A stretch of DNA of 64,000 nt from a virus: positions 32,001 to 96,000 of IMG/VR virus record IMGVR_UViG_3300023440_000002; one strand, written 5' to 3'. The notes beneath the pieces are model-generated. The model was not told where the DNA came from, searched no databases, and worked only from the letters and a program-made list of their open reading frames with translations. The position numbers were made by a program, and so were the translations under genes. This document shows positions 7,501 to 28,346 of this stretch, one piece after another (position 1 is the first letter of the stretch; each line of letters begins with the position of its first letter).

Positions 7501-8291
7501 CTAATGATGTTTTGGTTATATCTGGCAATAAGCTAGGAACAGCCAACGCAGGTCGTTATGTTGTTAGGGATGAAACGTTCGGGTCGGCTTATCTTTTTCC
7601 TACAAGTACGAGAATATTCACCGATCCTATCCCAGTAGCTACCGGATCTGTCGCTTTAGGTGATTCAGTTAATCAGGTGAACGTCGAAGAGCAAAACCCT
7701 GTCCGGATATGGAAGCGCATATTAGCTGTAGGTCCAGCTGAAACAGGTTTAGCTAACATAATAGTGGACTCTCCAAACCTACTTAATCGATTCTCCTCCT
7801 CAAATGCGGCATTCATTGAAGCTCAAGGTAAAATTGGATACGATACGGTACCGGCTTTCGGTATTGATGCCTATAAGAGTTTCGGTGGTCTGATTAAAGC
7901 CCTCAATCGGGTCATATATGGCGACCCTACGTCTCCCGCAGAGTTTCCTGGAACAAGAGCTGCCGGAACAGACATCGGCATCAGAGAGGCTATTATCAAG
8001 CGAATTAAGGTATCTCTAGGTGTTAGGGTTAGGACTGGCATTTCCTTCTCTGATATTCGAGAGTCTATCAAGGCGGCAGTTGCTGGGTATGTCAACAACC
8101 TAGGCGTAGGCGAACAAGTGGCTATGTCAAAAATATTAGAAGCAGCTTCGAAGGTTGGGGGTGTCGCTTCAGTGGTGATAACTTCGCCAGACTATAACGT
8201 CAGCGCTGATCAGATAGCGGTAGGAGCACAAGAAAGAGCCCAAATCATAGATCCATCATTCGATGTAACTATTTCTATACTTGGATCTTAA
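1596..8291 (+). CDS. Giant baseplate J/gp6-like wedge protein with large internal insertion
   Basis: N-terminal 'DRAEGEALQRLA', 'GTKGNVPRGAI', 'DDETTIRDKI..A..SKGTEQAI' and C-terminal 'IKAAVAGYVNNLGVGEQVAMSKI' are baseplate-J-like. The interior is beta-rich, with CBM5/12-like motifs (YAVGDVVSFSGNNY; YAAGDRVLFAGLNW). Confidence 0.8.
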   Translation: MANLPELRSREKIIGDLIDGFLARVKDVNDLNRGSVISQFFHAIGQSNFKAAADVISMIDALSVDRAEGEALQRLAADANVTISSGTFSAGRVSIQDISFAKVSTNVFAGQPAPVAGSTKMFVVDASKMNTSGGKIYIGRGTPNVEGPLTFTTVQAEAGGAYWSITLDVASPTTKFHNIGEEIVVSQGQNRKINSGTVVKTPSGSGVSSVNFKTVSPATIADGETKVDDVPVVAEVLGTKGNVPRGAIREAIGLSFSAIVFNDNAFVTGTPPDDETTIRDKIKSAEQAKSKGTEQAIKASAIGVSSTDDLKKVISSSVLRKADSSSALIFDDGSGYEPIFSGIGLEQIIDDALGGERELQLRQRPVAEARVKSIELAPFRIPENYALSVDVQGVTTTHTFVAGDFRVKESATAFETIASINGNPNINFNAATSDSASKIVLYPRDPSKNDITVKRLSSNDANDFLGLQTTTQYTLLLYKNDKILFQDGLPANVTTRLKSAWSTSITEGDTLVFSVDGTPPLEVAFTKEIFQEFDLSATVNAFTDIEIWVKVFNRLMSGVVTTSSGEEIVMTSARGKNNSAAVQIIGGTLKDKIFETGIAIEAFGRESDYTLNRQTGQIGLSVGLSSGDKVTAGSSFTRANITTTQLPDGTSSAGNIWMVVDGGVKYIPSGLEGNTLTTFSKSGSKITIESTNPNLDPVAYDGVSVGDWVVVWPEQTDLANFPSLFSFQGFWRVESVERGKIVVDDGNTVRSVPGTETIPTDRITILQSKAPVQKLSFGVNPLSGFVQEIEDNIEGVTADVIGSTIRISTISAGSNGELTIVAADSEGKAIGIAVNEIESNIPSQKGFVVTEDSEVGMPSFTYSELGSYISDTQFSEPKYDEIGGTTDDFVEILNRYDITSNPEQLRELLDPNKSRRMFVRKYDPTTDILEMQTKEFSKDDSSVLKELDRYFLRTSYQFDSTDTATAIVDGDVTTKIFGLPVARKVTVNNHSSPSLNDFSADDGESSLELKDTSSFSGFNFNDWKAWRQSSALLTDGSTYSVRIKSADYGPAGDTIRSGFVYPTSLDQDSLDLIINNAEMIDVGVVLPVTTARVPNWDGTSSFTTDVTPLSLSRDKVTYQWRVGVEPNFLSGGGGASLVVGDVAIISKSSDFLKENKEIEAKVTDISTNSFSIEIPSGISISDNISIDQSQNIGGLYSITTSTPHLVNQGDRVGVWDTQLIDGVNAPIDGSYFATVVSPNTFTVNLPPSVPGGEILSAIHSANIVVCTSSLPHGLSEGNVIIVGGFSTGNYNGLSIIQSVLSPTQFSYVRDGSSSSVINGRFDYQSYGSGVSISALTLNLVSGVVTVVSSATHGLIQGDIVSIDSSSVVAYNSSVTYAVGDVVSFSGNNYESLVSSNTGNTPNISPSDWSVSSIDLNGIYIVSVVDSTTQFKYSHYHTVGSISSTGGSISNQAPKGRLARSVGDSAAALAFAEVGTTSQEVVDYITENKSDLLQASIELPYDGTEIINTSTKEKNLSPGFHFGIAVSLTTIKASRKITLNVNSFVESGSTVSLKSTNAPQYDGTYSVFSQKQDGAEYKLTLQSNILSPITSTTILVSGTYQGVTDYVALRDGENSINITDLDSSATFPQFQLKKDWSLIPTVGEEIRLVATNTKQLNEFWNRLVVTGISNVAEVENSEYGRQLQITTNQFGSEGSIQFTGGTANNSSVAIVGSGSELAGKVGVFKIPYELRRGLSRKSWVKMEQTVRLNKILGFEGSTTLNVYSTGLEITGGTDGSFQTKRATSHDETSIFKVEKHGKFTAFINIGGQNIGLDVGGVKEGDWVRTTNTSALAYDVLQDYAAGDRVLFAGLNWTAVRVNGVSSTTVNPIPSDIWDIDTDYAQNSTVTYKGKAYIQSSATVTVGQYPDSAASNWNLIWEVREWQGGNTGIYKVVRVFGSDSFWVENDNSIEGMITLGDINNLTFYSHDSVMPNDVLVISGNKLGTANAGRYVVRDETFGSAYLFPTSTRIFTDPIPVATGSVALGDSVNQVNVEEQNPVRIWKRILAVGPAETGLANIIVDSPNLLNRFSSSNAAFIEAQGKIGYDTVPAFGIDAYKSFGGLIKALNRVIYGDPTSPAEFPGTRAAGTDIGIREAIIKRIKVSLGVRVRTGISFSDIRESIKAAVAGYVNNLGVGEQVAMSKILEAASKVGGVASVVITSPDYNVSADQIAVGAQERAQIIDPSFDVTISILGS

Positions 8292-10903: not shown

Positions 10904-11797
10904 ATGGCAGAACTAAAAGAGAAGTTAACGGCATTAACAAAAGATCAAGAAGGGGCTATGGAGGGGTACAAAGACGAAGGTTGTCGTATCGGTCTTACTC
11001 TTGAAGATAACAAAACCGACCCAAAAAGAGTTCATGATATTATGAATCAGTTAAGGGTTTCTTGTGGTTTTGAAGAAGCCGAAGATTTTGTTTACCTTGA
11101 TAGCCCTAAGGCGGCTGTTTCAGGGTATGAAGAGTGTAATGTGCATAATTGTATGTACGGGTATCATGACATCAACTGGATTCAACACTACATGTTCTTT
11201 AAGAAAGAAACTGAGATTGAAGTTGACGATCGGATTGATCTTATGTTGGAGTTAGCGGAAACAGCTGGCTGGATGTGGATGACACCTAAACTGAATATTA
11301 TCACCAAAAGACCGGTTAAGTTAAACATGATCAAAAAAAGCAACAACATTAAGGTTATGCATAACTACAACGGAAAAGCTGTCGAGTTTGCTGACGGTTA
11401 CGGGGTTTATATGATTAATGGGGTTCAAATCCCAAAAGATCTAACTTACTTGGTCGATATGCCGGCCGAAGAGATAGACATCAAAACTGTCCTTGATATT
11501 AAAAACACCGAAATTAGAACAGAATTCCTAAAAAAGGTCGGTATCGAAAAGGCTTTTGATTCTCTATCTAAAACAAAACTAGACGAAAAGGAGATGGAAA
11601 TTGGTGGAACTTACGAGTTGTTTTCTGTTCAATTAGGTGAAGTTACTCGCATTTACCTAAGAGGTGAGTGCCCAAGCAATCAAGAACCTTTCTTTGAAGG
11701 TTGCCATCCGGACTGCAAAACAGTAGAGCAGGCTTTGAATTTCCGTAACGGGTTCAAACTTAACCTTAAGTTTAATGCACCACTAAACTTAACCTAA
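10904..11797 (+). CDS. DUF6745-like protein with no internal low-complexity tract
   Basis: 'LTKDQE..Y...IGL', 'LDSP', 'YGYHDINW', 'AGWMW', 'RP', 'H..NGKAVEFADGYGVYMINGV', 'IKNTEIR', 'CPS', 'VEQALNFR' match the family layout as I recall it. Confidence 0.7.
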   Translation: MAELKEKLTALTKDQEGAMEGYKDEGCRIGLTLEDNKTDPKRVHDIMNQLRVSCGFEEAEDFVYLDSPKAAVSGYEECNVHNCMYGYHDINWIQHYMFFKKETEIEVDDRIDLMLELAETAGWMWMTPKLNIITKRPVKLNMIKKSNNIKVMHNYNGKAVEFADGYGVYMINGVQIPKDLTYLVDMPAEEIDIKTVLDIKNTEIRTEFLKKVGIEKAFDSLSKTKLDEKEMEIGGTYELFSVQLGEVTRIYLRGECPSNQEPFFEGCHPDCKTVEQALNFRNGFKLNLKFNAPLNLT

Positions 11798-11920: not shown

Positions 11921-12307
11921 ATGTATATGCAGTACTACCAGCAAGGTGACGTTTTGCTAAAGAAGGTTTCAGTCCTTCCAAAGGAAGCAAAAAAGATTAA
12001 AGGGAAGGTTCTTCAAGAATCTGAGATTACAGGCCATCACCATCATTTTAAGGGTAACGCAGCGGTTGATCTATATCAAACCCTCGAAACTCCAACTAAT
12101 GATAAAACCATCACACCGAACTTTGGCAAATTCATCATTGTTAAAGAAATGTCAGATCTTTTCCACGGAAAAGGCTTTGACGCCACCCCTGCGGCACTAA
12201 ACCGAGGCGACCATGACGCAATCTCTATTCCACCTGGAATTTACGAGATCGATATCGTTAGAGAGTACGACTTTGACGCAAATGAGGTTTCTCGAGTGGT
12301 CGATTAA
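11921..12307 (+). CDS. Small conserved phage protein, usual neighbour of DUF6745 genes
   Basis: 'YQQGDVLL', 'E.TGHHH', 'H..I.IPPG.YEI...REYD'; SD GGAG present. Confidence 0.7.
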   Translation: MYMQYYQQGDVLLKKVSVLPKEAKKIKGKVLQESEITGHHHHFKGNAAVDLYQTLETPTNDKTITPNFGKFIIVKEMSDLFHGKGFDATPAALNRGDHDAISIPPGIYEIDIVREYDFDANEVSRVVD

Positions 12308-12748: not shown

Positions 12749-13171
12749 ATGACTTTACTAGTAGACCTACAAAACTTAACGATTGGCACACAGACGAAGC
12801 AGATCGACGCTAATGATTCATACATGGAACATGCCGGACCGGTAGACTTCCGTTCGTTCATGGAATCAAAAGCAAGAAAAGGCGAAACTTCCGCCATGTT
12901 CCACTTAGAAAAGGAAGGTAATGCCAGAATAAGAAAGGCAGGTTACCAGTCTCTCAGTGGTCAAATAGGCACCTTAAGACCAGAACCTGGTCGAGGACTG
13001 ATAAGTCGTAATGGGGTAGGGTGGCTTTATATGAACCTGTCCACTTTAAATGAAACACAATTCAAAGCAGAGGTGCAAGATTTTATAGATTATCTAGAAT
13101 CAGAGGGTATCGTAATAACATCAGAGATAGTAGGTACTTCCATGGCGGACATTGGGGTTTCTTGGGCTTAG
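12749..13171 (+). CDS. Hypothetical protein
   Basis: Part of track ORF 12680..13171; likely start MTLLVDL overlaps the previous stop (TAATG). Confidence 0.55.
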   Translation: MTLLVDLQNLTIGTQTKQIDANDSYMEHAGPVDFRSFMESKARKGETSAMFHLEKEGNARIRKAGYQSLSGQIGTLRPEPGRGLISRNGVGWLYMNLSTLNETQFKAEVQDFIDYLESEGIVITSEIVGTSMADIGVSWA

Positions 13172-13186
13172 CTCGCAAAACTTAAC

Positions 13187-13213
13187 TAAAGTTTTTCAGC
13201 AAAGATCCGATAG
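13187..13213 (+). promoter_or_regulatory. Sigma-28-type promoter heading the + micro-ORF array
   Basis: TAAAGTTT-N11-TCCGATAG, about 50 nt before the first unit. Confidence 0.75.
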
Positions 13214-13259
13214 GGTGTATGTAAATGGCAAGTAGCTAACCCAATAAGGGAAAACCTAG

Positions 13260-15494
13260 ATGGAAACTAAATCTATTGCAAGTAAGGTTCACAGGAAGGT
13301 TCACGAGCAGATTCGCTGGCAGGTTTTCGGGCAGATTAACTGGGAGATTAGCAACCAGGTTGCCGATCAAATAATCAATCCAATAATCAATCCAATAAGG
13401 GATGATCTAAATGGAAACTAAAGATATTACAAAAGATGTTCGCCAGCAGGTTTACGAGCAGGTTCGCCAGGAGGTTTACGAGCAGGTTAACCGGCAGGTT
13501 CGCTGGAAGGTTGACGAGCAGATTCACTGGCAAATTCGAGATCAGGTTTACCGGCAGGTTCGCTGGCAGATTAACTGGCAGATTAGCGATCAGGTTAACT
13601 GACAAATAACTGAACCAATAAAGGATAACCTAGATGAAAGCTAAAGATATCACAAAAGAGGTTTACCGGCAGGTTCGCTGGCCGATTCTCGAGCAGGTTG
13701 CCGATCAAATAATCAATCCAATAATCAATCCAATAAGGGAAAACCTAAATGGAAGCTAAAGTTATTACAAATATAACCGATAAGATTTACAGTCAGGTTC
13801 TCAACCAGGTTAGCGACCGGATTCACGAGCAGCTTTACTGGGAGATTTACGGGCAGGTCCACGACCAGGTTCTCGGGCAAATATCTGACCCAATAGAGGA
13901 AAACCTAGATGGAAGCTAAAGTTATTACTAATAATATTTACGACCAGGTTCGCCAGAAGATTAAACAGCAGATTTTCGAGCAAGTTTATTGGCAAGTTAG
14001 CTTGCAGGTTCGCTGGTATATTAGCGATCAGATTAACCAGCAGGTTCGCGAGCAAATAGCCACCCCAATAAGGGAAAATCTAAGTGGAAACTGAAGATAT
14101 TACAAAAGAGGTTCGCCGGCATATTGTCAAGCAGATTAACTTGCAGGTTCGCGATCAAGTAACTAATCCAATATGGACTGATCTAAATGGAAACTAAAGA
14201 CGTTACAAATACAGCCGATCAGTCCCGCCGGCAGGTTCGCTGGAAGGTTGCCGATCAGGTTTTCGACCAGGTTAATGATCAGGTTAATGATCAGGTTTAC
14301 TGGCAGATTAACTGGGAGATTAGCAACCAGGTTGCCGATCAAATAATCAATCCAATAATCAATCCAATAAGGGATGATCTAAATGGAAACTAAAGATATT
14401 ACTAATGAGGTTCGCCAGCAGGTTTACTGGGAGATTCACAGTCAGGTTAACTGGCATGTTCGCAACCAGGTTCGCAACCAGGTTCGCCGGAAGGTTTTCT
14501 CGCAGATTTACGAGCAGGTTTTCGGGCAAATAACTAACCCAATAAAGGAAGATCTAGATGGAAACTGAAGATGTTACAGATAAGATTTACTATCGAATTA
14601 CCGGACAGGTCCGCAATCAGGTTGAGTGGCAGGTTCGCAGGCAGGTTCGTGACCAGATTATTGACCAGATTTACGACCAGATTGACGAACAAATAGTTAT
14701 CCCAATAAAGGAAAATCTAAATGACTGAAGCTAAAGTTATTAAAAATAAGATTTACCGGCAGATTCGCGGCCAGATTTGCCGGCAGATTAACCGGCAGAT
14801 TCGCTGGCAGACTCGCAGTCAGATTTGCCGGCAGATTAACTGGGATATTCGCGATCAGGTTCGCATTCAGATTTACGATCAGGCTAATGATCAAATATTT
14901 AATCCAATAAGGGATGATCTAAATGGAAACTAAAGATATTACAAATACAGCCGATCAGTCCCGCCGGCAGGTTCGCTGGAAGGTTGCCGATCAGATTTTC
15001 GACCAGGTTAATGATCAGGTTTACTGGCAGGTTTTCGGGCAGATTAACTGGGAGATTAGCAACCAGGTTGCCGATCAAATAATCAATCCAATAATCAATC
15101 CAATAAGGGATGACCTAAATGGAAACTAAAGATATTGCAAAAGAGATTCACGAGCAGGTTTACGAGCAGGTTTGCGACCAGGTTAGCGAGCAGGTTCGCC
15201 GGCAGGTTCGCCGGCAGGTTTACTGTCAGATTGGCGACCAGACTTACTGGCAAGTAACTAACCCAATAAGGGATGACCTAAATGGAAACTGAAGATATTG
15301 CAAAAGAGATTCACGAGCAGGTTGGCGAGCAGATTCGCCGGCAACTTTACGAGCAGGTTAACCGGCAGGTTCGCTGGAAGGTTGACGAGCAGATTTACTG
15401 GAAGGTTCGCTGGCAGATTCTCAACCAGGTTTCCGAGCAAATTACCAATCAGATTATCTGACAGATTCAAAACCCAATAAGGGATAACCCCTAA
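13260..15494 (+). repeat. Micro-ORF array 1: 13 coupled QVxx-repeat units
   Basis: Unit starts read by hand at 13260, 13411, 13634, 13749, 13909, 14084 (GTG), 14187, 14383, 14558, 14721, 14923, 15119 and 15282. The conserved junction CCAATAAGGGAnnAnCTARATGGAAACTAAAGATATT holds an SD and an 11-nt start/stop overlap. Confidence 0.92.
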
Positions 15495-15516
15495 ATAAAC
15501 TAAGAAAGGAACTATT

Positions 15517-15738
15517 ATGGCAAAGCAAGAATCAACACCGTGGGATGACCTAGAAGGAAGATTGGTCAACTACAAAAAACTACACCAGAAGAAAGCCACC
15601 GGACCACTCAAGGAAGAACTGGCTAAGGCAAAAACCCTAACTCAAGCTAGAAAGGTACTCTTCGGAGAAAAGAAGAAAAGAATCAATTGCTCTAATTGCT
15701 CACACAAAGTTTGTGTTTGCGGGAAAACTTCCCGTTGA
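15517..15738 (+). CDS. Small hypothetical protein with C-terminal Cys cluster
   Basis: SD AAGGA; CSNC..VCVC. Confidence 0.55.
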   Translation: MAKQESTPWDDLEGRLVNYKKLHQKKATGPLKEELAKAKTLTQARKVLFGEKKKRINCSNCSHKVCVCGKTSR

Positions 15739-15906
15739 TTTTCGCAGTGAAGGTCAAAATAGAATCATTTGACTCGAGGTTTACTGAAATAACCCAAGAC
15801 CTTTATTTCAGTAAACCTCCTAGTGAACAAGAAATAACCAAAGAGGCTTCTATTGACCCGCAAGTAAAGTGGTCATACATCGTAAAAAGAGTAATCATAA
15901 TCAACA

Positions 15907-16161
15907 ATGAAGGTATTTAACTTAATATTATGGCTTAAGGGATTGTTCTCTAAAAAGGGTATATCACACACTATTATGAAACCCCAAGGATTTAACGCCC
16001 TTAAGCCTAGCACCCCATCTAATTGCATTTATTGCGAAAACCAATGGGAAGAATTCGACCAGCATTCTTATGAAAGATGCAGTAAATGCTTCGATCTAAC
16101 CAACCTCCACCCAAGCAAAGTAACTTTAAAGAACAATAAAATCACCATTAACTTCGAGTAA
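15907..16161 (+). CDS. Small zinc-ribbon-like hypothetical protein
   Basis: Two CxxC motifs. Confidence 0.45.
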   Translation: MKVFNLILWLKGLFSKKGISHTIMKPQGFNALKPSTPSNCIYCENQWEEFDQHSYERCSKCFDLTNLHPSKVTLKNNKITINFE

Positions 16162-16165
16162 ACCC

Positions 16166-18391
16166 ATGACTAAATACGAACAATTCAGACAATACATCGC
16201 CCAATTCCTCCAAGGCCCTAACGTAGAAGCGATACTTAATAGTTTAGCAGACGATTCAACTAAACTAGAAAACCTATCGAGATCCGTAACAGACCAGCTA
16301 ACCATATCGACAGCCTCAAGTGTTTACTTAGATAAAAGACTAGCTGACAAAGGAATAACTCGCCCACCAGAACTAGGCATGTCTGACATATCATTCCGTA
16401 AGATGGGAATACAAATAACTGCGGCTAAGCAACTAACTGGATTAATCCATACGATACTGGGCACTTTCTATGGTGAAGAAGCAGTAAGGGCTAACCTGAA
16501 GAATACTAAGACAGGACCTTACAACCTAGAAGAAGGAATGGAACTAGAGTTCGAACTAGAGGATGGTATTACTAGGGTGGTATCATTCAAAAACACAGAC
16601 TTCATAAACATCAACCAAGCTACGGCATCAGAGGTAGCATCAGTAATAACACGATTCATAAGAACACAGAACTTAGGAGCTTTTGCTAGTACAGTAAAGG
16701 ACTTAAACACAGGCTTAGAGTTCATAAAGTTGTTCGGTGGAGCTGCGGGGCCATACTCAACAGTGACAGTCACAGGAGGCGAAGCTAATACAATCCTGCA
16801 ATTTCCTAATATTAGAGGAACCGAGCTGTTAGTTAATGATACAGCATGGGAGATTACCCGTACCGTAGGCAGCACATTACGGTTCAGATGGGCAGGCAAT
16901 TCCAAACCGGCATTAGACTTGATATTTCCAACCGACCGCGTAATGATTTACGGGCAAAGTTTTGAGTCTATTGGACTGGCCGGAACTTTTATTGTCTCAA
17001 ACGTACGACCTCCACTGATCGGCCCAGACCTAGACGCAGGGTGGTTCGAGATAGAAGTCCCTGCTTTCAGTGGCTTACGTTCTACTCAGCCTGGCACAAC
17101 ACCCCCAACTAACGTACCACCCGACACTATCTATTCTTATACCATAGTTCAAGCCAACTGGGAAGAGCTAATGTTCATGAAGCCAGTCAAAGCTTTACCT
17201 AACCGCCAGGTGCGTTACGCCTTAGGTTGGGAGCCTAGAGGTGATTTGCTGCGAATTTATATGCCGGCAACAACTGGTATTGTCTCTAGGGGGATTGAAG
17301 GTGCAGCACACTTACATTCGCTTTACGAGGACGGTAATCTGGATGGGGCTTTCGGCTCTGTTACGGATCTTGACTCCGCAGTGGAAGTTATCTCAGATCG
17401 CATTATACGATACCGCCAACTAGGTTACGATAATCACGCTACGGGAGGAGTATTGTCTTGGGGTGGTAATGACTACGAAATCGATTATGTCCGGCGTGAG
17501 CAATTCACCTCTACCGTATTTTTGAATGAGCCCCACGGATTGCCGGTAGTGCAAGATTCTTTCGGGCGCGACGTTTCTTTGGAAGTGGTATCTGTTGTGG
17601 TGGATATTATGCAGACAGACGATTTAGAATTCAAATCCCCCTATATGGTTGACCTAGGTAAGAACTACACCGTCAGGTCTGAGTTTGTTACTTCTCGCGC
17701 TAAGGTGTTTGCGGGTTCCACCCTGTCCACTTTGGATGTGGATGGTATTTTACCTAATGAGCCAGGGGTATTATTGTTCGACTTAAACACCGACAAAGAA
17801 GAAGGCCCTATTCGTTATGTTGGGGTTCAGGCTCAAAACGCCCCTAACGTGGTGAATATAGTGACTATTTCCCAAAACGGGCTGAATGTTACCATTACCA
17901 CAGATGCTCCTCACGGCGCTACTAGTGGCAGCAACATAGTAATATCAGGTACAACTTTCTTTGATGGGGTGTATCCCGTAGTGGGCGTACCTAACCCGAC
18001 TACCATCCAAGCGATTTCCACTGTCGTCCAGGTGGAGAATGAGGTTGGGGTAGGTAGCTTGTCTGTTGTGGTGGATAATGTTCGGTCTACGTTGCTGCTC
18101 GACCCTAGCAATGAATTCAAGTTTGATCATGAAATAGGAGCTGACTTAACTTTGATGTCTTCTAGGAATGCCTACCAGCCTGCCTTAGATGGCTCAGATT
18201 ACCCGTTCTACGTTACTGGGGTAGCTGAGGGTAGAGTTTTCGCTGCGGACGTCATAGAGGCTATTACGGCGTTAGGGATTAATATCGAAATATTGATCGT
18301 CTACCCAAGCGATAAAGGCCTAGGCAACGAAGGAGGTTCAGATGGTAATGAAACCCCTGTGTCAGATAAAGTTACGGTTTGGGGTGTTTAA
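16166..18391 (+). CDS. Probable baseplate/tail structural protein
   Basis: 741 aa. N-terminal 'ISTASSVYLDK..GITRP..MSD.SFR' resembles wedge-subunit motifs. Shares 'F...ATA.E' and 'VTITTDAPHG..G..I.ISG' motifs with 1596..8291 and 42074..47227. Confidence 0.65.
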   Translation: MTKYEQFRQYIAQFLQGPNVEAILNSLADDSTKLENLSRSVTDQLTISTASSVYLDKRLADKGITRPPELGMSDISFRKMGIQITAAKQLTGLIHTILGTFYGEEAVRANLKNTKTGPYNLEEGMELEFELEDGITRVVSFKNTDFININQATASEVASVITRFIRTQNLGAFASTVKDLNTGLEFIKLFGGAAGPYSTVTVTGGEANTILQFPNIRGTELLVNDTAWEITRTVGSTLRFRWAGNSKPALDLIFPTDRVMIYGQSFESIGLAGTFIVSNVRPPLIGPDLDAGWFEIEVPAFSGLRSTQPGTTPPTNVPPDTIYSYTIVQANWEELMFMKPVKALPNRQVRYALGWEPRGDLLRIYMPATTGIVSRGIEGAAHLHSLYEDGNLDGAFGSVTDLDSAVEVISDRIIRYRQLGYDNHATGGVLSWGGNDYEIDYVRREQFTSTVFLNEPHGLPVVQDSFGRDVSLEVVSVVVDIMQTDDLEFKSPYMVDLGKNYTVRSEFVTSRAKVFAGSTLSTLDVDGILPNEPGVLLFDLNTDKEEGPIRYVGVQAQNAPNVVNIVTISQNGLNVTITTDAPHGATSGSNIVISGTTFFDGVYPVVGVPNPTTIQAISTVVQVENEVGVGSLSVVVDNVRSTLLLDPSNEFKFDHEIGADLTLMSSRNAYQPALDGSDYPFYVTGVAEGRVFAADVIEAITALGINIEILIVYPSDKGLGNEGGSDGNETPVSDKVTVWGV

Positions 18392-20671
18392 GATCTCCCC
18401 TTATCAGGTTAGCTACTTGCCAGCTAACCTGCCAGTGAACCCGGTTGCTAGTCTGACGTTGAATATGCCAGTAAACCTGTCCGCTAACCTGCTCGTAAAC
18501 CTGCCGGTAAATCTGCTCGCGAATCTTATTAGCAATATCATTAGTTTTCATCGATATCATCCTTTATTTGGTTAGCTACTTGCCAGCTAATCTGCTCGAG
18601 AATCGGCCAGCGAACCTGCCTTCTAATCTTATTGCTAACCTGCCAGCGGACCTGCCAGTGAACCTGCCAGATAACCTGCCAGTAAATCTGCTCGCGAACC
18701 TGCTGGCGAATCTCTTTTGCAATATCATTAGTTTCCACTTAGGTCGCTCCATATTGGATCAGTTATTTGCAGGCGAACCTGCTCGCAAGCCTGCCGGTGA
18801 ACCTGCCATCCAACCTGCCAGCTAACCTGCTCGATAACCTGCTCGAGAATCTGCTCGTAAATCTGCTCGCGAATCTTACTTGTAATATCATTAGTTTCCA
18901 TTCAGATTATCCCTTATTGGGTTGGCTATTTGCTGGCCAACTTGGTCGATAATCCGGTCGCTAACCTGCCGGTAAACCTGCTCGATAACCTTCCAGTAAA
19001 CCTGGTCGTCAATCTGCTCGAGAATATGCCAGCAAACCTGATCGTAAACCTCCTGGCGAATCTCTTTTGCAATATCATTAGTTTCCACTTAGGTCGCTCC
19101 ATATTGGGTTGGCTATTTGCTCTTGAACCTGCCAGTAAACCTGGTCGTTAACCTTCCAGTAAACCTGTCCGCTAACCTGCTCGTAAACCTGTCGGTAAAT
19201 CTGCTCGCGAACCTGATCGATAACCTGCCCTCGAACCTGCTGGCGAATCTCTTTTGCAATATCTTCAGTCATATAGATCATCCTTGATTGGATTAGCTAC
19301 TTGCAGGCGAACCTGCTCGTAAACCCGCCAGTTAATCTGGTCGTCAATATGGCCGTAAATCTTCCAGCGAATTTCTTTTGTAATACCTTTAGCTTTCATT
19401 AAGGTTATCCTTTATTGGGTTAGCTATTTGATCGAAAACCTGGTCGATAACCTGCCCGCTAACCTGGTCGTCAATCTGCTCGAGAATATGCCAATAAGCC
19501 TGGTCGTTAACCTGCCCCAGAACCTGCTGGCGAACCTGCCAACGAACCTCATTAGTAATAACTTTAGCTTTCATCTAGGTCGCTCCATATTGGATCAGTT
19601 ATTTGCAGGCGAACCTGGTCTCGAATCTCCCAGTGAACCTGCTCGATAACCTGCAAGTTAATTTGCTTGACAATATGCAGGTAAGCCTTCCAGCTAATCT
19701 CTTTTGCAATATCTTCAGTCATTTAGGTTTTCCTTTATTGGGTTAGTTATTTGCCAGCTAACCTGCTCGAGAATCTGCCAATTAACCTGCTCGATAACCT
19801 GCCAGTAAACCTGTTCGATAACCTGCCGGCGGATCTGGTTGCGAACCTGCCCGCTAACCTGGTCGTCAATCTGACAGTAAACTTGCCAGCTAATATCTTC
19901 AGTCATTTAGGTTATCCTTTATTGGGTCAGATATTTGATCATGAACCTGCCATCCAATCTGCCATCCAATCTGCCGGAAAACCTGCCAGTAAACCTGTCG
20001 GCGAACCTTCCAGAGAGCTTGGTCGTTAACCTGATCATTAACCTGCCGGTGAACATCTTTTGCAATATCTTCAGTTTCCATTTAGGTTATCCTTTATTGG
20101 GTCAGATATTTGATCATGAACCTGCCATCCAATCTGCCATCCAATCTGCCGGAGAGCCTGGTCGTTAATCTGCCAGTAAATCTGTTGGTGAATCTGCTGG
20201 TGAATCTCATTAGTAATATCTTTAGCTTTCATCTAGGTCTTCCCATATTGGATTAGCTATTTGCTCGAAAACCTGCTCGTAAACCTGCCGGCGAACCTGG
20301 TCGTAAACCTGCCCGCGAATCTGCCAGTAAATCTCCCAGTAAACCTGCCAGTTAACCTCTTTTGTGATATCTTCAGATTCCATTTAGATCTACCTTTATT
20401 GGGGTGGCTATTTGATTGCGAACCTGCTCGTAAACCTGCCGGCGAACCTGGTCGCAAACCTGCCCGCGAATCTGCCAGTAAATCTCCCAGTAAACCTGAT
20501 CATTAATCTGCCAGTGAAGCTTCCAGTGAACCTGGCCGTTAATCTGCTCTCGAACCTGCTGGCGAATCTCATTAGTAATATCTTCAGCTTTCATCTAGGT
20601 CATCCATTATTGGGGTGGCTATTTGATTGCGAACCTGGTCGCTAACCTGCCGACCTTACTTTACATAAACC

Positions 20672-20698
20672 TTATCGGTTATGTCTGTAATAACTTTA
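20672..20698 (-). promoter_or_regulatory. Sigma-28-type promoter inside an array unit
   Basis: Reverse complement TAAAGTTA-N11-ACCGATAA. Confidence 0.75.
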
Positions 20699-20958
20699 GC
20701 TTTCACTTAGGTCTCCACCTATTAGGTTACGAACCTGCCGGCGAACCTGCCAGTGAACCGGCAGGTTAATTTGCTCGACAATATGCAAGTAAGTCTTCCA
20801 GCTAGTCTGCTGGTTAACCTGCTGATGGATCTTCCAGTGAATCTGCCGGCGAATCTCTTTTGTAGTATCTTTAGTTTCCATTGAGATTTTCCTTTATTGG
20901 GTCAGTTATTTGATTGCGAGCTTGATCGTCAATTTGCCGACCTTACTTTACATAAACC

Positions 20959-20985
20959 TTATCGGCTATATCTGTAATAACTTTA
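20959..20985 (-). promoter_or_regulatory. Sigma-28-type promoter inside an array unit
   Basis: Reverse complement TAAAGTTA-N11-GCCGATAA. Confidence 0.8.
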
Positions 20986-23525
20986 GTTTCCATGCAGATC
21001 TTCCCTTATTGGTTCAGTTATTTGCCCATGAACCTGGTCGTGAACTTGCCAGTTAATTTGATCGAGAATCTGGCCGTGAACCTGGTCGCCAATCTGCTGA
21101 TAAACACCCCGGCTAATCTGATCATTAATCTGCTGGTGAATCTTACCTATAATATCTTCAGTTTTCATTAAGATCTTCCCATATTGGGTCAGTTATTTGC
21201 AGGCGAACCTCCCAGTAAGTCTGGTCGCCAATCTGCCAGTAAACCTGCCGGCGAACCTGCTCGAGAACATGGCCGCGAATCTGATGGTAAATCTCCCAAT
21301 CAACCTGCCAGTGAATCTTACTTGTAATATCTTTAGTTTTCATTTAGGTCTACCTTTATTGGAGAGGTTGTTTGCCAGCGAACCTGCATATCAACCTGAT
21401 CTAGAATCTGCCGCTGAATCTGCCAGCGAACCTGATAGTGAACCTGATCTCGAATTTGCCAGTAAATCTGCCAGTTAACCTCTTTTGTAATATCTTTAGT
21501 TTTCATCGAGGTCATCCTTTATTGGGTCGGATATTTGATTGTAAACCTGATTGTGAACCTGATCTAGAATCTGCCAGTAAGCCTGCCAGTAAGTCTGCCC
21601 GCTAGCCTGGCCTTTAATACGCTCGAGAATCTGGCCGTGAACCTCCCAGTGAACCTGATCGTAAATATGCCCGCTAGCCTGCTGGCCAACCTGATTGGTA
21701 ATTTGATCGTCAACCTGCTCGTCAACCTGCCAGTAAATCTGTTGACTAATCTGATTATGTACCTTGTCGGCTATATCTTTAGTTTTCATTTAGGTCATCC
21801 TTTATTGGGTTAGCTACTTGCTGGTGAACCTGCTCGTGAACCCGCCAGTAAACCTCCTCGTAAGTCTCCTCGTAAACCTCCCAATAAACACAATCGTAAA
21901 GATGCTTGCTAACCTTATCGAGAATCTGATTGCGAACCTGCCAGTGAATCTCATCGTGAATCTTACCTGTAATACCATCAGCTTCCATCTAAGTCTTCCT
22001 TTATTGGGATGGTTATTTGCCAGCGAATCTGATCGCGAACATGCCAGTTAACCTTCCAGCGAACCTGCTCGAGAATCTCCCAGTCAACCTGCTCGCTAAC
22101 CTTCCAGCGAATCTGACTGTAAATCTTACTTGCTATATCTTCAATTTTCATTTAGGTCATCCTTTATTGGGTCGGATATTTGATTGTAAGCCTGCTCGTG
22201 AACATGCTGGCGAACCTGCCGGTTAACCTGCTCGTAAACCTCCCAGCTAACCTGGTCGCAAATCTGCTCGAAAACCTGGTCGCGAATCTCCCAGTGAATA
22301 CCCCAATGAACCTGGTCGTAAACCTGCGAGCGAACATCTTTTGTAATATCTTTAGTTTTCATCGAGGTCATCCTTTATTGGAGAGGTTGTTTGCCGGCGA
22401 ACCTTACCGTGAATCAGCCAATTAACCTGTTCGCGAATCTGACTGTAAACCTGCCAGTGAACCTGCTCGTAAATCTGCCAGTGAGCGTGACTGACAATTC
22501 GATTGTGAATTTTGTCGGCTATATCTTTAGTTTTCATCGAGGTCATCCTTTATTGGGTTAGCTACTTGCTCGTGAACCTGATTGTGAACCTGATCTAGAA
22601 TCTGCTCGCTAATCTGCTTGCGAACCTCCCAGTAAGCCTCCCAGCGAATACCCCAATGAACCTGGTCGTAAACCTGCTTATAAACCTTATTTGCGGCAAT
22701 TTTAGCTTCCATTTAGTTCATCCCTTATTGGGTTGGCTATTTGATTTCGAATTTGCCTATGAATCTGCTTGCGAACCTCCCAGTAAACCTCCCAGCGAAC
22801 CTGCAAGTTAATCTGCTTGACAATATGCAGGTAAACCTCCCAGCTAATCTCTTTTGTAATATCATTAGTTTCCATCTAGATCTTCCTTTATTGGGTTAAG
22901 TATTTGATCACGAATCTGCCAGTTAACCCTCGAGTAAGCCCTCCAATAAACCAAATAATCAACCTGCTCGCGAACTTGCCAGTAAATCTTCCGGTAAACC
23001 TGCTGGCGAATCTCATTAGTAATATCTTCAATTTCCATTTAGGTCTTCCCATATTGGATCAACTCCTTGCTCACGAACTTGAGCGTAAATCTGCCAGTAA
23101 ATCTGCCAGCGAACCTTCCGGTTAACTTTCTCGTGAATATGATTGATAGTCTGCCGGCGAATCTGCTGGCGAACCTGGTCGTGAATCTCTTTTGTAATAT
23201 CTTCAGTTTCCATTTAGGTCATTCCTTATTGGGTCGATTATCTGTACGTGAACCTGCCAGCGAACATGCAAGCGAACATGCTCGAGAATCTTCCAGTAGG
23301 GGTTCCGGCCAACCTGATCAACGACCTGCTCTCGAACCTGGTCGTAAACCTGCTTATAAACCTTATTTGCGGCAACTTTAGCTTTCATTTAGATCTTCCT
23401 TTATTGGGATAACTATTTGCCCGCGAATTTGATCGTTAATCTGCTCGTTAATCTGTTCGCGAACCTGCCCTCGAACCTGCCAATAAGTCTGCCAGTCAAC
23501 CTTCCAACTAATCTCGCTACACACC

Positions 23526-23552
23526 TTATCGGTTATACCTGTAATAACTTTA
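23526..23552 (-). promoter_or_regulatory. Sigma-28-type promoter inside an array unit
   Basis: Reverse complement TAAAGTTA-N11-ACCGATAA. Confidence 0.75.
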
Positions 23553-23572
23553 GCTTTCATTTAGATCTTCCT

Positions 23573-24115
23573 TTATTCGCTCAAATACACAGCACCATCA
23601 ACAAAACCCGGAGCTATCTTGTCCAGGTACTCTCTATTCATATAGGTTTGGTTCTTGATTAGTTCTTTATAATTCGGAGGGTTAAATATCTTATTGATCT
23701 CTTTATGAATAAAAACATTATCTTTAATTGTCTTTTTAGAATCTTCCATTGTTACAATACATCGAGACGGACAATAATAATACAAGTTATGCATCATCAT
23801 TGTTGCTTTTGGCGTTAAGTGCCTGGTATCACACAAGGTTGAAATATAAAAGGCCATACTTAGGGCTTTCTTAATCAGGCAATGAACTTTAAACCCTCTC
23901 TTTTTAATGTCCTGAATTGAAGCCCCTAGCTGAAAAAAAGGCGTAACCGGCCCTCCAGGACTGTCAATTGTTAAATAAACATCCCGATGGGTCAACCTAA
24001 TATAAACTGCCAACGCAGATGCCGACATAGAATCGGTAAGCTTTAGTTTAGATACTTCACTAGCTGAAACCTGACTAGGCAACAGGATCATTAAAATTAA
24101 AAGTAAGTATTTCAT
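23573..24115 (-). CDS. ClpP/crotonase-fold serine protease with predicted signal peptide
   Basis: 'LTIDSPGG', 'ALSMAF' (catalytic Ser) and 'MMMH' (catalytic His); hydrophobic N-terminus MKYLLLILMILLPSQVSA. Confidence 0.75.
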   Translation of the reverse strand: MKYLLLILMILLPSQVSASEVSKLKLTDSMSASALAVYIRLTHRDVYLTIDSPGGPVTPFFQLGASIQDIKKRGFKVHCLIKKALSMAFYISTLCDTRHLTPKATMMMHNLYYYCPSRCIVTMEDSKKTIKDNVFIHKEINKIFNPPNYKELIKNQTYMNREYLDKIAPGFVDGAVYLSE

Positions 24116-24129
24116 ATTGTTCCTTTCTG

Positions 24130-26120
24130 TTAGGGTTTAATCTCTATTCCATTAACCTTATCGGCTATATCTGCAATATCTTTAGTTTCCATTTAGATCT
24201 ACCTTTATTGGTTCAGTTATTTGCTGGTCAACCTGGTCGCAAACCTGCCAGTGAATATGCCAGTCAACCTGCCAGCGAATCTCCCAGTGAGCCTGGTCAT
24301 TAATCTGACGGTCAACCTCCTGACGAATCTTTTTTGTAATATCTTTAGTTTCCATTTAGGTCTTCCTTTATTGGGAGGGTTATTCGGTCGTCAATCTTTA
24401 AGTGGATCTCCCAGAGAACCTCCCGGCGAATCTTCCGACTAATCTGCTCATCAACCTGCTCATCAACCTGCTTATAAGTTTGGTTGTCAATCTGCAAGCG
24501 AACCTGCTCGATAACCTCATTAGTGATATCTTTAGTTTTCATCTAGGTTTTCCTTTATTGGGTTAGCTACTTGCTCGTGAACCTGCTCGTCAACATTCCA
24601 GTAAATCTCCCGGCTCACCCCCCTGTCAACCTGCCGGTTAATCTGCCAATAAACCTGATCGCTAATCTCCCGACGAATTTTATTACCAGTATCTTCAGCT
24701 TTCATCTAGATCATCCTTTATTGGGTTAGCTACTTGCTCGTGAACCCGCCAGTAAACCTGCCTGTGAACCTTCCAGCGAACCTGCCCTCTAGCCTGCCAA
24801 TTAATCTGTTTGTGAACCTTCCAGCGAACCTGCTCGTCAAACTCTTTTGTAATATCTTTAGCTTCCATCTAGGTCTTCCTTTATTGGGAGGGTTATTTGC
24901 TCGTCAATCTTTAAGTGGATCTCCCAGAGAACCTCCCGGCGAATCTTCCGACTAACCTGCCAACAAACCTGCTCATCAACCTGCTTATAAGTTTGGTTGT
25001 CAATCTGCAAGCGAACTTTATTACCAATATCTTTAGCTTCCATCTAGGTCTTCCTTTATTGGGTCGAATACTTGATTGTAAACCTGGTCGTGAACCTGTC
25101 GGCGAACCTGTCGGTGAACCTGCCATCCAACCTGCCGGAGAACCTGACAGTTAGCCTGCCAGCTAACCTGCCAGCTAACCTGCCAGCTAACCTTTTTTAT
25201 AATACCTTTAGTTTCCATCTAGGTCTTCCTTTATTGGATTAGTTATTTGCTCGAAAACCTGGTCGCAAACCTGCCCGCGAATCTGCCAGTAAATCTCCCA
25301 GTAAAACTGATCATCAATCTGCCAGTGAACCTGGCCGCGAATCTGCCAGTAAACCTGGTCGTCAACCTCCCGACGAATCTTTTTTATAATACCTTTAGTT
25401 TCCATCTAGGTCTTCCCTTATTGGATTGGTTATTTGACCGAAAACCTGCAAGAGAGCATGCAAGCGAACATGCAAGCGAACCTTCCAATAAATCTGCCAG
25501 TCATCCTGCCAGTTAACCTGCTCGAGAATCTGGTCGCGAATCTCTTTTATAGTATCACTAGCTTCCATCTAGGTTTTCCTTTATTGGGTCGGTTATTTGC
25601 TCGAAAACCTGGTCGTAAACCTGTCGGCGAATATGCCGGCGAACCTGCCATTCAATCTGCCCTCGAACCTGCCATCCAACCTGCCGGAGAACCTGACAGT
25701 TAGCCTGCCAGCTAACCTGCCCGCGAACCTGTTCGATAACCTCTTTTGCAATATCTTTAGCTTCCATTTAGGTCTACCATTATTGGGTTAGTTATTTGTG
25801 TGCGGATTTTACTGTAAGTACTCCAGCTGACCTGCATGTTAACTTCTTTTCGAGCGTTCCAATCAAAAACACTGCAAGCGGGTAGATTAGACAGATTAGC
25901 AATCTCATCAGTAATACCCAACCGTAAATCAATTATGTCTGTCATCGAGATCTCCCTTTATTGAAGCCATCACCTGCAAGCGGACCTCCAAGTGAATTGC
26001 AAAAGTGGTTTGTTGGTAAATGTAACTCCGAACATTAAACCTAAAGAGATCTGGGGAGTTACGTGTGCATTGACTTAGAAGGTCGATGGCTATCTTATGT
26101 TGAATATCAAGGACTTTCAT
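24130..26120 (-). repeat. Micro-ORF array 2, proximal part: about 12 units (2 divergent, 1 truncated)
   Basis: Starts at 26120, 25945, 25767, 25568, 25405, 25218, 25043, 24868, 24705, 24542, 24355 and 24192. Confidence 0.9.
24158..24184 (-). promoter_or_regulatory. Sigma-28-type promoter in a truncated unit, upstream of the ClpP-like gene
   Basis: Reverse complement TAAAGATA-N11-GCCGATAA. Confidence 0.75.
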
Positions 26121-26885: not shown

Positions 26886-28346
26886 TTGAAGAAAATACTA
26901 TCAAAATTGCAAATAAAACAAAAGCTTACCTCTTTAGCTGGCAAAGCCAAAGAAAAGATAGATCGCACCTCCCTCGGCAACCCTAGTGATAACTTATACA
27001 GTGAAATCAAGAGCTTACGTAATATGCAAAGAAAAGGTGCCCGTATGGGTAAGTCGGAAGCCGCTAAGCTACTTAAAGGTTCTTTGCAGCGACGTAACCC
27101 TTTCAATCCCGAAAACGTAGACCCGGACGAAAGGTACGACGTTAAAAGTTGGACTGACAGTTACGGCGACAGAGCTGACATTCCTCAAATGCAACCGGAA
27201 GCGAAACAGCGCGGCATGCATAAACTACACGGACTCACCCAGTCAAGGCAAAACGAATCAGGTGAAATGGAGTTCTTACTCCACAGGGGTATGAACCATG
27301 ATGAGCACGAAGCTATACAAACTTACGGCACCGGGGATAGTACCAGCTCTTGGACTCCTCATGTCGGAATAGCCCAAGACTTCGCCTCGCATTATCAAGA
27401 TCAATTCGACCCCCCATCTAAGGTTGTATCGGCCTGGATACCTGAATCTCAAATCCATCATATCCCAAACACCATCGGAGGAAAGAGGTACCCTGAAGGT
27501 AATATTTCTAACTCTAACCATAGCCACGAACAAGAAGTTATAGTTAAACCTCACAGATTCAATACGGTAGATTACCAGCAACCCGACAGCGACGACACGA
27601 TAAACTCAAGAATAAGTGCGAGAGGTAAAAATCTCACGAACTTTAGGTCTTACGCTAAACGCCGACTGGGAAAGAAGGAGGAACTAGAAAAGGGATCTTT
27701 GCAGCGCCGCAACCCTTTCAACCCAATAAAAGATGTTTCACCTAAAGACCGGCGAGACGTAGAAAAATGGCATAGAGGTGTAGGGGAGAGGTCGGACAGG
27801 GATTCTGCTCCAAGTAAAATTCCGGAAAACGCCACAAAGCGCGGCATGCATAAACTACATGGACTTACCCAGTCAAGGCAAAACGAATCGGGCGAACGAG
27901 AGTTCCTGCTCCATAGAGGTGCTGGCGCTCAAGAATCCGGATGGCTAAACAGCTCTAAGGTTCTTAGCGGACATTCGAGCTGGACTCCTAAGTATAAAGT
28001 GGCAGAACGATTTGCTAGTATGAACCCCCACGCAAAGGGCAATGTTTTTAGTGCGTGGATTCCTGAATCTCAAATAGCTGGAACACCTAATGCGATTGGG
28101 GAAGCTGGGTATTCTATAAAGCAAGATCACCACCTCCCCAAAGAAACCCCAGCCAAAATGATGAGGCCTGCATATTTTAGCAGCGAACAAGAAGTCATAG
28201 TTAAACCCCACAAGTTCAATATAGTAGACCATCAACACCCCGACGACCAAGAAACCTCCCTTAACTCCAGAGTAAACCTAAGAGGGTCAGGTTCGGACAG
28301 CTTCAAGGATTATGCCGAAAGGATCATCAGGAGGAGACAAAAATGA
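26886..28346 (+). CDS. Tandem two-domain ADP-ribosyltransferase-like protein
   Basis: Two copies of about 205 aa, each with LLHRG ... SSWTP ... EQEVIV (R-S-E clade pattern). Confidence 0.65.
   Translation: MKKILSKLQIKQKLTSLAGKAKEKIDRTSLGNPSDNLYSEIKSLRNMQRKGARMGKSEAAKLLKGSLQRRNPFNPENVDPDERYDVKSWTDSYGDRADIPQMQPEAKQRGMHKLHGLTQSRQNESGEMEFLLHRGMNHDEHEAIQTYGTGDSTSSWTPHVGIAQDFASHYQDQFDPPSKVVSAWIPESQIHHIPNTIGGKRYPEGNISNSNHSHEQEVIVKPHRFNTVDYQQPDSDDTINSRISARGKNLTNFRSYAKRRLGKKEELEKGSLQRRNPFNPIKDVSPKDRRDVEKWHRGVGERSDRDSAPSKIPENATKRGMHKLHGLTQSRQNESGEREFLLHRGAGAQESGWLNSSKVLSGHSSWTPKYKVAERFASMNPHAKGNVFSAWIPESQIAGTPNAIGEAGYSIKQDHHLPKETPAKMMRPAYFSSEQEVIVKPHKFNIVDHQHPDDQETSLNSRVNLRGSGSDSFKDYAERIIRRRQK

Follow-up and report, generated by a model that had tools for sequence, protein, structure and literature searches.

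One studied case of a tunable tetrapeptide tract in a phage is gp54 of mycobacteriophage Tweety, where the number of repeats sets the specificity of counter-defence. The protein consists of 40-48 A-A-x-x tetrads between unique end domains, and its gene is non-essential (PMC2884959, PMC9262239). In the 12-bp repeat, positions 1-6, 9, and 12 are invariant, while positions 7, 8, 10, and 11 are variable (PMC2884959). Mutants with an altered number of repeats evade the Phrann gp29/gp30 defence (PMC2884959, PMC9262239). Here we describe two arrays of overlapping mini-genes that are built, like the genes for Tweety gp54, Che8 gp57, and PMC gp51, from a 12-bp unit encoding a tetrapeptide with two fixed and two variable residues. 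Tweety gp54, however, is one gene tuned by mutation and not a standing library of free modules, which is what the arrays appear to be. They lie in a window of 64,000 nucleotides, comprising bases 32001-96000 of the 108,381-base linear IMG/VR virus record IMGVR_UViG_3300023440_000002 (CheckV completeness 68%), which is that of a large, uncultured tailed phage.

The same design is encountered in proteins with the Pfam domain DUF6745 (PF20530) that carry a repeat tract. As in the window, their repeat has four residues, two fixed and two variable and often Q-V, the 12-nt unit has frozen third codon positions, and the genes are mostly phage-borne. These proteins contain the tract as a single covalent insert, flanked by an N-domain and a C-domain, whereas in the window it is spread over about 50 genes, every one of which has a head, a tail, a Shine-Dalgarno (SD) site, and a start codon of its own.

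Other systems resemble the arrays in part. The repeats of transcription activator-like (TAL) effectors are near-identical at the DNA level, with variation confined to two residues, and bind DNA. Two variable residues per repeat are shared with the mini-genes, and this likeness might suggest a recognition code along a periodic target; TAL-effector repeats are 34 residues long and belong to one polypeptide, in contrast to the four-residue repeats in separate genes seen here. The pilS/pilE and vls systems and the proteins diversified by diversity-generating retroelements (DGRs) also have many diverged tandem copies of a short module with stop-proof variable codons. The mini-genes differ from these in that each has translation signals and probably all are expressed, and in that no expression site or reverse transcriptase was found.

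The arrays were parsed, from the assembled record, by a script and by reading of the sequence. They contain 50 clear units, 13 on the + strand and 37 on the - strand, and take up about 9.5 kb. A unit is made up of a conserved head (METKDITKEI), n tetrads of the form [Q/E/K]-[V/I]-x1-x2, and a tail (NPI[K/R]xDLxGN) whose codons also contain the SD site and the start of the next gene. The evidence supports the conclusion that the mini-proteins are copies of the central tetrad tract found in most DUF6745 proteins, and that these copies have become detached, multiplied, and diversified. We further consider it moderately probable that the two arrays are coupled operons whose products, about 50 single-helix mini-proteins, are detached tract helices that dock on a tract-less DUF6745 core.

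The homology was detected with a profile of the 50 peptides, which was compared with 1.84 billion representative proteins. There were 781 matches at E<=1e-3 and 133 at E<=1e-10, and the best E for a DUF6745 protein was 7.5e-35. Eight of the ten best long matches that were scanned carry DUF6745. The few short matches that were checked are the window's own units, and the remainder are mostly proteins of 300-550 amino acids, matched internally. In the metagenomic sequences P0014-P0019, a (xxQV)n tract of 100-250 residues lies between a conserved N-domain and the C-domain that Pfam recognises as DUF6745. The tract is (xxQL)n in gp38 of the Mycobacterium abscessus prophage prophiGD102-1 (QSM05137.1), and (xxSL)n in UOF77368.1 of the circular phage genome MW202476. 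An exhaustive profile search was required to see this: single units gave sub-threshold noise only against Pfam and PHROGs, and a word-based search with one unit against proteins of similar length returned no homologue.

The units themselves have no Pfam domain, so that globular domain and tract do not share a polypeptide here. Since the DUF6745 domain sits in a separate, tract-less gene, the units are to be seen as derivatives of the DUF6745 repeat and not as members of the domain family. That gene is followed by a gene for a putative partner:

10904-11797, + strand: DUF6745 (PF20530) protein of 297 amino acids without an internal tetrad tract, the proposed core (Pfam E 1.5e-11).
11921-12307, + strand: 'QQGDV' partner of 128 amino acids, starting MYMQYYQQGDV (phrog_27831, PHROG E 4e-10).

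The core gene is located 1.5 kb upstream of the first array and is the sole DUF6745 gene in the record; the 52 unit matches in the whole record all fall within the arrays. A first interpretation of this DNA, made from its letters alone (the sequence-only reading), had recognised the arrays; it had missed that their units come from the repeat of a known protein, as detached copies, and that a tract-less partner gene lies upstream. In the core, a segment DSPKAA reaches, within a dozen residues, the helix that other members have after the tract. Its homologues P0002-P0011 likewise have no tract, and its clade is wholly tract-less. Clusters of tract-less DUF6745 proteins in the ESM Atlas are 69-91% viral. 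Because two DUF6745 proteins, P0016 and P0012, carry the QQGDV module as a C-terminal fusion, the core and the QQGDV protein probably act together. In a cyanobacterial ESM Atlas cluster, DUF6745 is joined to leucine-rich repeats (LRR_4 in 89% of members), and a metagenomic DUF6745 protein (L015:2-706) has a (xxNL)n tract; from such members, the DUF6745 core seems to accept different repeat modules. A literature search found no mention of DUF6745 or PF20530, no text with the repeat strings used in this sense, and no paper on such arrays.

The arrays and the features within and between them are as follows:

13226-13259, + strand: orphan junction (tail remnant and SD site), AGTAGCTAACCCAATAAGGGAAAACCTAG, followed by ATG; it precedes the first + unit (sequence reading).
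13260-15461, + strand: Array A, 13 coupled mini-genes of 37-70 amino acids (script parsing).
15517-18391, + strand: three genes without relation to the units, encoding 73, 84, and 741 amino acids, which separate the two arrays.
18372-23560, - strand: Array B1, 28 clear coupled mini-genes and two TAA-broken units (script parsing, repeat families).
23573-24115, - strand: ClpP-like gene of 180 amino acids, inserted into a unit (PF00574 E 1.1e-5; PHROG protease families).
24133-24192, - strand: head fragment of a unit (METKDIADIADKVNGIEIKP, then a stop), severed by the insertion (repeat family).
24182-25767, - strand: Array B2, nine coupled mini-genes of 57-69 amino acids, in which every overlap is 11 nt (script parsing).
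25757-26120, - strand: two divergent leader units of 62 and 63 amino acids (sequence reading).

The sequence-only reading had described a single array of about 55 micro-genes. The number is borne out by the 50 clear units together with two divergent leaders, two TAA-broken units, and one head fragment. The single array is not: there are two arrays that converge on opposite strands, with three + strand genes between them, and that on the - strand is interrupted by the ClpP-like gene. Clear units encode 37-97 amino acids, with modes of 57 and 61, and 36 of the 50 lengths equal 1 mod 4. As had been anticipated, many (23 of 50) are shorter than the 60-residue cutoff.

Some members of the arrays are irregular. 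The leader units have unit-like tails (ITNPIMVDLNGS and MASIKGDLDDRHN) and no clear tetrad core. The broken units at 20585-20706 and 20872-20993 (-) have an in-frame TAA after 16-17 codons, and both lie inside a 287-bp tandem duplication. Two clear + units (13411-13602 and 15282-15461) terminate early at a TGA where TGG (Trp) is usual, and the conserved tail goes on in frame past the TGA at 13602 and at 15461. Given that TGA is the normal stop of 15 other units, this looks like a TGG-to-TGA nonsense mutation and not like recoding. The ClpP-like protein has a hydrophobic, signal-like N-terminus, and the stop codon of its gene falls within a junction remnant. The gene has taken the place of the body of one unit, the head fragment having been left behind at 24133-24192.

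The junctions between units have the layout of translational coupling, where the stop codon overlaps the next start and the SD site lies within the upstream coding sequence. With the conserved start codon used, the overlap is 11 nt at 40 of 48 junctions (ATGGAAACTAA type) and 8 nt at four, and the start-to-start distance is 12n+7 in 37 of 48 cases. An SD-like site is present at -17 to -5 in all 50 clear units, of which 47 start with ATG and three with GTG. The typical 11-nt overlap, the 12n+7 spacing, and the SD sites had all been noticed in the sequence-only reading, and all stand. A degenerate 32-nt junction pattern has 39 matches in the window, compared with none in 100 shuffles. Sigma-70-like promoters are not enriched within the arrays (21, with 25 expected). 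The SD sites and start codons suggest that every unit is translated.

The antisense frame (N-L-x-x) was also considered as coding, for it is nearly open, with six stops in 2637 codons. It has neither ATG nor SD sites, and its openness is a by-product of the NNC/NNG template, because the complement of NNC NNG reads CNN GNN, which never gives stops. Only the sense frame (Q-V-x-x) has an ATG and an SD site at every unit and has protein relatives.

The periodic architecture might also be that of a non-coding region, such as a satellite or a CRISPR-like (clustered regularly interspaced short palindromic repeats) array, or that of an assembly artefact. We regard this as extremely unlikely. In-frame protein homology argues against a non-coding region, and no Rfam family was matched. 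A 'repeat-spacer-like' organisation had been proposed, and this turns out to be a visual likeness only: the 'repeat' is the coding junction, and the 'spacers' are 12-nt periodic and mutually homologous, so that a CRISPR array was rejected, with no search aimed at cas genes. As for an artefact, independent contigs from other samples share the design. Units are alike to only 60-87%, and no exact repeat exceeds 101 nt; thus, nothing compels a short-read assembly to collapse the array. The 101-nt repeat, found at 13330-13430 and 14302-14402 (+), consists of the ...NWEISNQVADQIINPIINPIRDDLNGN end and the junction. The peptide end ...NWEISNQVADQIINPIINPIRDDLNGN, common to + units 1, 7, and 11, has a doubled INP(I) motif that is found in no unit of the - array.

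Diversity among the units is extensive. As had been seen at first inspection, no two peptides are identical; identity is 91% for the best pair, with a median of 44%. The 12-nt unit is CAG-[G/A]TT-NNC-NN[G/C/T], with entropies at positions 1-12 of 1.06, 0.34, 0.92, 1.11, 0.39, 0.61, 1.91, 1.73, 0.91, 1.90, 1.33, and 1.47 bits. The first and second positions of the x1 and x2 codons are thus the most variable (1.3-1.9 bits), and the third positions are lower (0.9 and 1.5 bits), which is the outcome of the codon-position test that the sequence-only reading had called for. Position 9 is C in 78% of cases and position 12 is G in 60%, so both are biased and not invariant. The x1 residue is mainly R, Y, H, N, or S, and x2 is mainly W, D, E, R, or N. 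Codon use in the arrays differs from that in the rest of the phage: CAG accounts for 83% as opposed to 26%, GTT for 91% as opposed to 43%, CGC and CGG together for 75% as opposed to 15%, and AGC for 58% as opposed to 13%. A comparison with the internal tracts of L011 and L036 and the arrays of L023 and L025, all loci in metagenome contigs, found other frozen codons (TCT GTT, TCT GTA, TCC GTG, and CAG GTC) with the same pattern of variability. Since each lineage has different frozen codons, the pattern is best read as the footprint of concerted repeat evolution together with diversification of two residues, and not as a fixed sequence requirement.

The same DNA pattern might suggest that the variable codons are written by a DGR or another targeted mutator, as NNC codons are reminiscent of those derived from AAC in DGR variable regions. 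The probability of this is close to negligible. No match to reverse transcriptase (PF00078) was obtained in the 108-kb record, which is 68% complete, and there is no single template repeat. Furthermore, all four bases are used at positions 7 and 10, and the pattern recurs with different frozen codons from lineage to lineage.

Traces of recombination are evident. Compared with shuffled tetrads, blocks common to several units are in large excess (38 two-tetrad blocks with 1.3 expected, and 16 three-tetrad blocks with 0 expected), and 42 inverted repeat pairs of 70-82% identity connect the opposed arrays. These mosaic blocks and inverted pairs would fit a silent reservoir of cassettes that recombination copies into an expressed tract at another place, in the manner of pilS/pilE or vls antigenic variation. 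Such a reservoir is very unlikely, given that every cassette has its own SD site and start, that no tract-bearing expression site is present in the 68%-complete record, and that the only DUF6745 protein there is tract-less.

Alternatively, the arrays could be a tolerated, self-expanding repeat that arises by unequal crossing-over and has little or no function, the template alone keeping the frames open. The shared multi-tetrad blocks, the 287-bp tandem duplication, and the four or five broken units are in line with this, as are the NNC codons, which cannot be stops, and the nearly open antisense frame. The openness of nearly all units, which had been taken as a sign of selection, is therefore template-built in part. 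What the template does not account for is the x2 codon. Under a model of independent positions, about 62 stops are expected per 534 tetrads, and there are four in the whole array; the expected stops are nearly all TA[A/G] at x2 (about 50), and essentially none are found there. Stop depletion, a test that had been suggested in the sequence-only reading, thus supports selection on the protein under that model. The retention of an SD site and a start in every unit, the existence of three other lineages that keep coupled units with different overlaps and tails, and the heavy load that about 9 kb represents in a packaged genome also speak against a functionless repeat, which we hold to be decidedly improbable. 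The earlier proposal of a protein-level diversity library, and not a satellite, is upheld by the tract homology, the SD sites and starts, the stop depletion, and the recurrence in three lineages.

This recurrence was found among metagenome contigs. A search with an alignment of the tract-less core gave 28 loci, and free mini-genes were sought beside them with a hidden Markov model (HMM) of the unit, as the sequence-only reading had advised, and with a scan for lag-4 periodicity. Tract-less DUF6745 genes with free, coupled tetrad mini-genes occur in three other lineages. In L010, the units are of the QV type with an 11-nt overlap, and the core is 40% identical to that of the window. In the lineage of L023/L024/L030, L023/L024 have six units with an SV-type repeat, the tail DWV(K/R)ERNKEV, and a 4-nt ATGA overlap behind a strong SD site. 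In L025/L026/L035, about 15 units have a 17-nt overlap and the tail QKLKEYDFNK. Free mini-genes were found at none of the seven loci with the tract inside the open reading frame, in the flank covered. The genes that flank the arrays in these contigs are phage-like. On the 34-kb contig Ga0209770_10000217, an IS607-like pair (a serine recombinase and a TnpB-like transposase, by PHROG) is located at L025:1214-3077 (-), 6.5 kb upstream of the DUF6745 gene and the array.

In a maximum-likelihood tree of the C-domain, arrays are found in two separate clades that are all tract-less. The first comprises the window and L010 (support 100/100), and the second comprises L023 and L025 (98/89), whose sister pair is tract-bearing. 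The tree is unrooted, and the simplest reading of it is that the tract became detached at least twice. Searches of other collections gave no further cases: neither the junction pattern nor the DUF6745 core was found in the viral contig collection, the core alignment had no match in genome contigs, and a DNA search with the + array region (window 13000-16200) had no match in 50,697 phage records.

Structure prediction was consistent with a helical tract. The AlphaFold2 model of the unit at 25208-25405 is one helix spanning residues 2-63, with a predicted local distance difference test score (pLDDT) of 90.8. From helix geometry, V/I at every fourth residue would form a hydrophobic stripe rotating by 40 degrees with each tetrad, and the helix would grow by about 6 Å per tetrad. 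The peptides had been described as amphipathic with a four-residue periodicity; the tetrads bear out the periodicity, while the stripe would wind round the helix and leave no single amphipathic face. The model of the core has a pLDDT of 86 and matched no solved fold (Foldseek best E 0.2; VIA-align best Z 4.9, for the C-terminal sheet only).

A two-chain model of the core with the same unit scored 0.88, while the best of three controls scored 0.00. As a calibration, 58 of 80 solved complexes and 2 of 110 mismatched pairs attained the 0.88 mark; both counts apply only roughly, since own alignments were used. Three docking runs agreed in at least 83% of contacts, with a partner pLDDT of at least 76. 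The contacts of lowest error are between unit residues 42-61, i.e., the last tetrads and the tail, and core residues 22-30, 68, 90-95, and 151-168. They include or adjoin the conserved core columns Y22, G30, P68, D89, W92, H153, and A159, and the core residues involved flank the site at which other members have the tract inserted. The predicted complex supports binding of the mini-protein to the core.

A single long helix with a periodic hydrophobic stripe would, if the prediction is right, also suit a self-assembling subunit, for instance of a heterogeneous fibre, of a virion decoration, or of a scaffold, in which case the mini-proteins would be real and independent of DUF6745. Coupled translation fits stoichiometric subunits, and the arrays lie between baseplate and tail genes, beside a gene for a 741-aa relative of the Mx1 'kelch repeat protein'. 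However, structural subunits are usually conserved, and not hypervariable at two of every four residues. In addition, the units are homologous to the DUF6745 tract and co-occur with tract-less DUF6745 genes in four lineages, and in cultured phages the DUF6745 gene is found among early or non-structural genes. A structural role of this kind is unlikely.

In the favoured reading, in which detached tract helices dock on a tract-less core, the phage's own DUF6745 gene would have lost its tract, which became detached and multiplied into units. Ribosomes would move from gene to gene via the 11-nt stop/start overlap, so that all variants are made together. Each helix would dock by its last tetrads and tail on the conserved core surface, close to the expected place of the tract. 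In this way a single core, probably together with the QQGDV partner, could be presented with about 50 alternative helical surfaces that differ by one-tetrad steps in length and by two residues per tetrad. By analogy, the most likely use would be the binding of variable host or rival-phage proteins, i.e., broad counter-defence.

It is tempting to go further and to speculate that this is a germline-encoded system of combinatorial recognition, where a core of DUF6745 and QQGDV is armed non-covalently with any of the co-expressed helical modules. The variable residues (rich in R, Y, H, W, D, E, and N) and the length in tetrad steps would then form a recognition code. We put this forward tentatively, as a possible but doubtful extension. 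If true, it would provide many binding specificities at once, for example, against diverse host defence or receptor variants. We know of no system with such an architecture of a core plus a library of free helices.

Several observations weigh against docking on the core and a use in counter-defence. The docking is a matter of model confidence only, and a long helix on a helical surface is an easy case. Because the SD and start signals overlap the tail, its conservation has more than one possible cause. The ratio of non-synonymous to synonymous change (pN/pS) is only 1.1-1.4 at x1/x2 and is saturated, with values of 0.55 at Q and 3.9 at V/I; due to this saturation, reliance was placed on positional entropy and codon usage. 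Some tract-less loci with long flanks, such as L017, show no array, which means that a core need not come with a library. PADLOC gave no match for the core, the partner, the units, or their neighbours. DUF6745 is without known function or fold, and therefore its role is assigned by analogy alone. The analogue itself, Tweety gp54, has no Pfam family, and its hhalign probability against the core alignment is 1.1%. Since gp54 is not a DUF6745 protein, the likeness is one of design and perhaps use, not of descent.

The surroundings of the arrays are those of a phage genome. The record encodes a baseplate J-like giant protein, baseplate and tail-fibre proteins, an endolysin, an RNA ligase, an exonuclease, and a sigma factor; a tRNA search found none. 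The two arrays are both placed between baseplate and tail genes. In the stretch between them there is a terminator-like hairpin at 15719-15735. The 741-aa protein (16166-18391, +) has 34% identity, over 64% of its length, to the 'kelch repeat protein' of Myxococcus phage Mx1, and the 3' end of its gene and the last - unit are convergent, with an overlap of 20 nt. Further away, at 1596-8291 (+), a protein of 2231 amino acids has both a baseplate J-like domain and a CBM_5_12 carbohydrate-binding module. At 26886-28346 (+), a 486-aa protein with no family match has an internal duplication of a module of about 200 residues, both copies of which start near KGSLQRRNPFNP and include MHKLHGLTQSRQNESGE.

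Because related phages carry the same repeat inside a single DUF6745 protein, this phage may arm a repeat-less core with about 50 helices. If the helices do clip back on the core, a virus would here have a new means of carrying diversity, in the form of a standing library that is inherited and whose subunits are interchangeable. Such a library would replace mutation, recombination, or retro-mutagenesis as the source of diversity. If the units are real genes, they include dozens that are close to or under common length cut-offs. The scaffold would be a compact, natural one for binder design, with one helix and two variable residues per turn. For the family, which is uncharacterised and mostly viral, detachment and multiplication of the tract seem to have occurred in at least two branches, and if the docking is true, DUF6745 gains a testable hypothesis.

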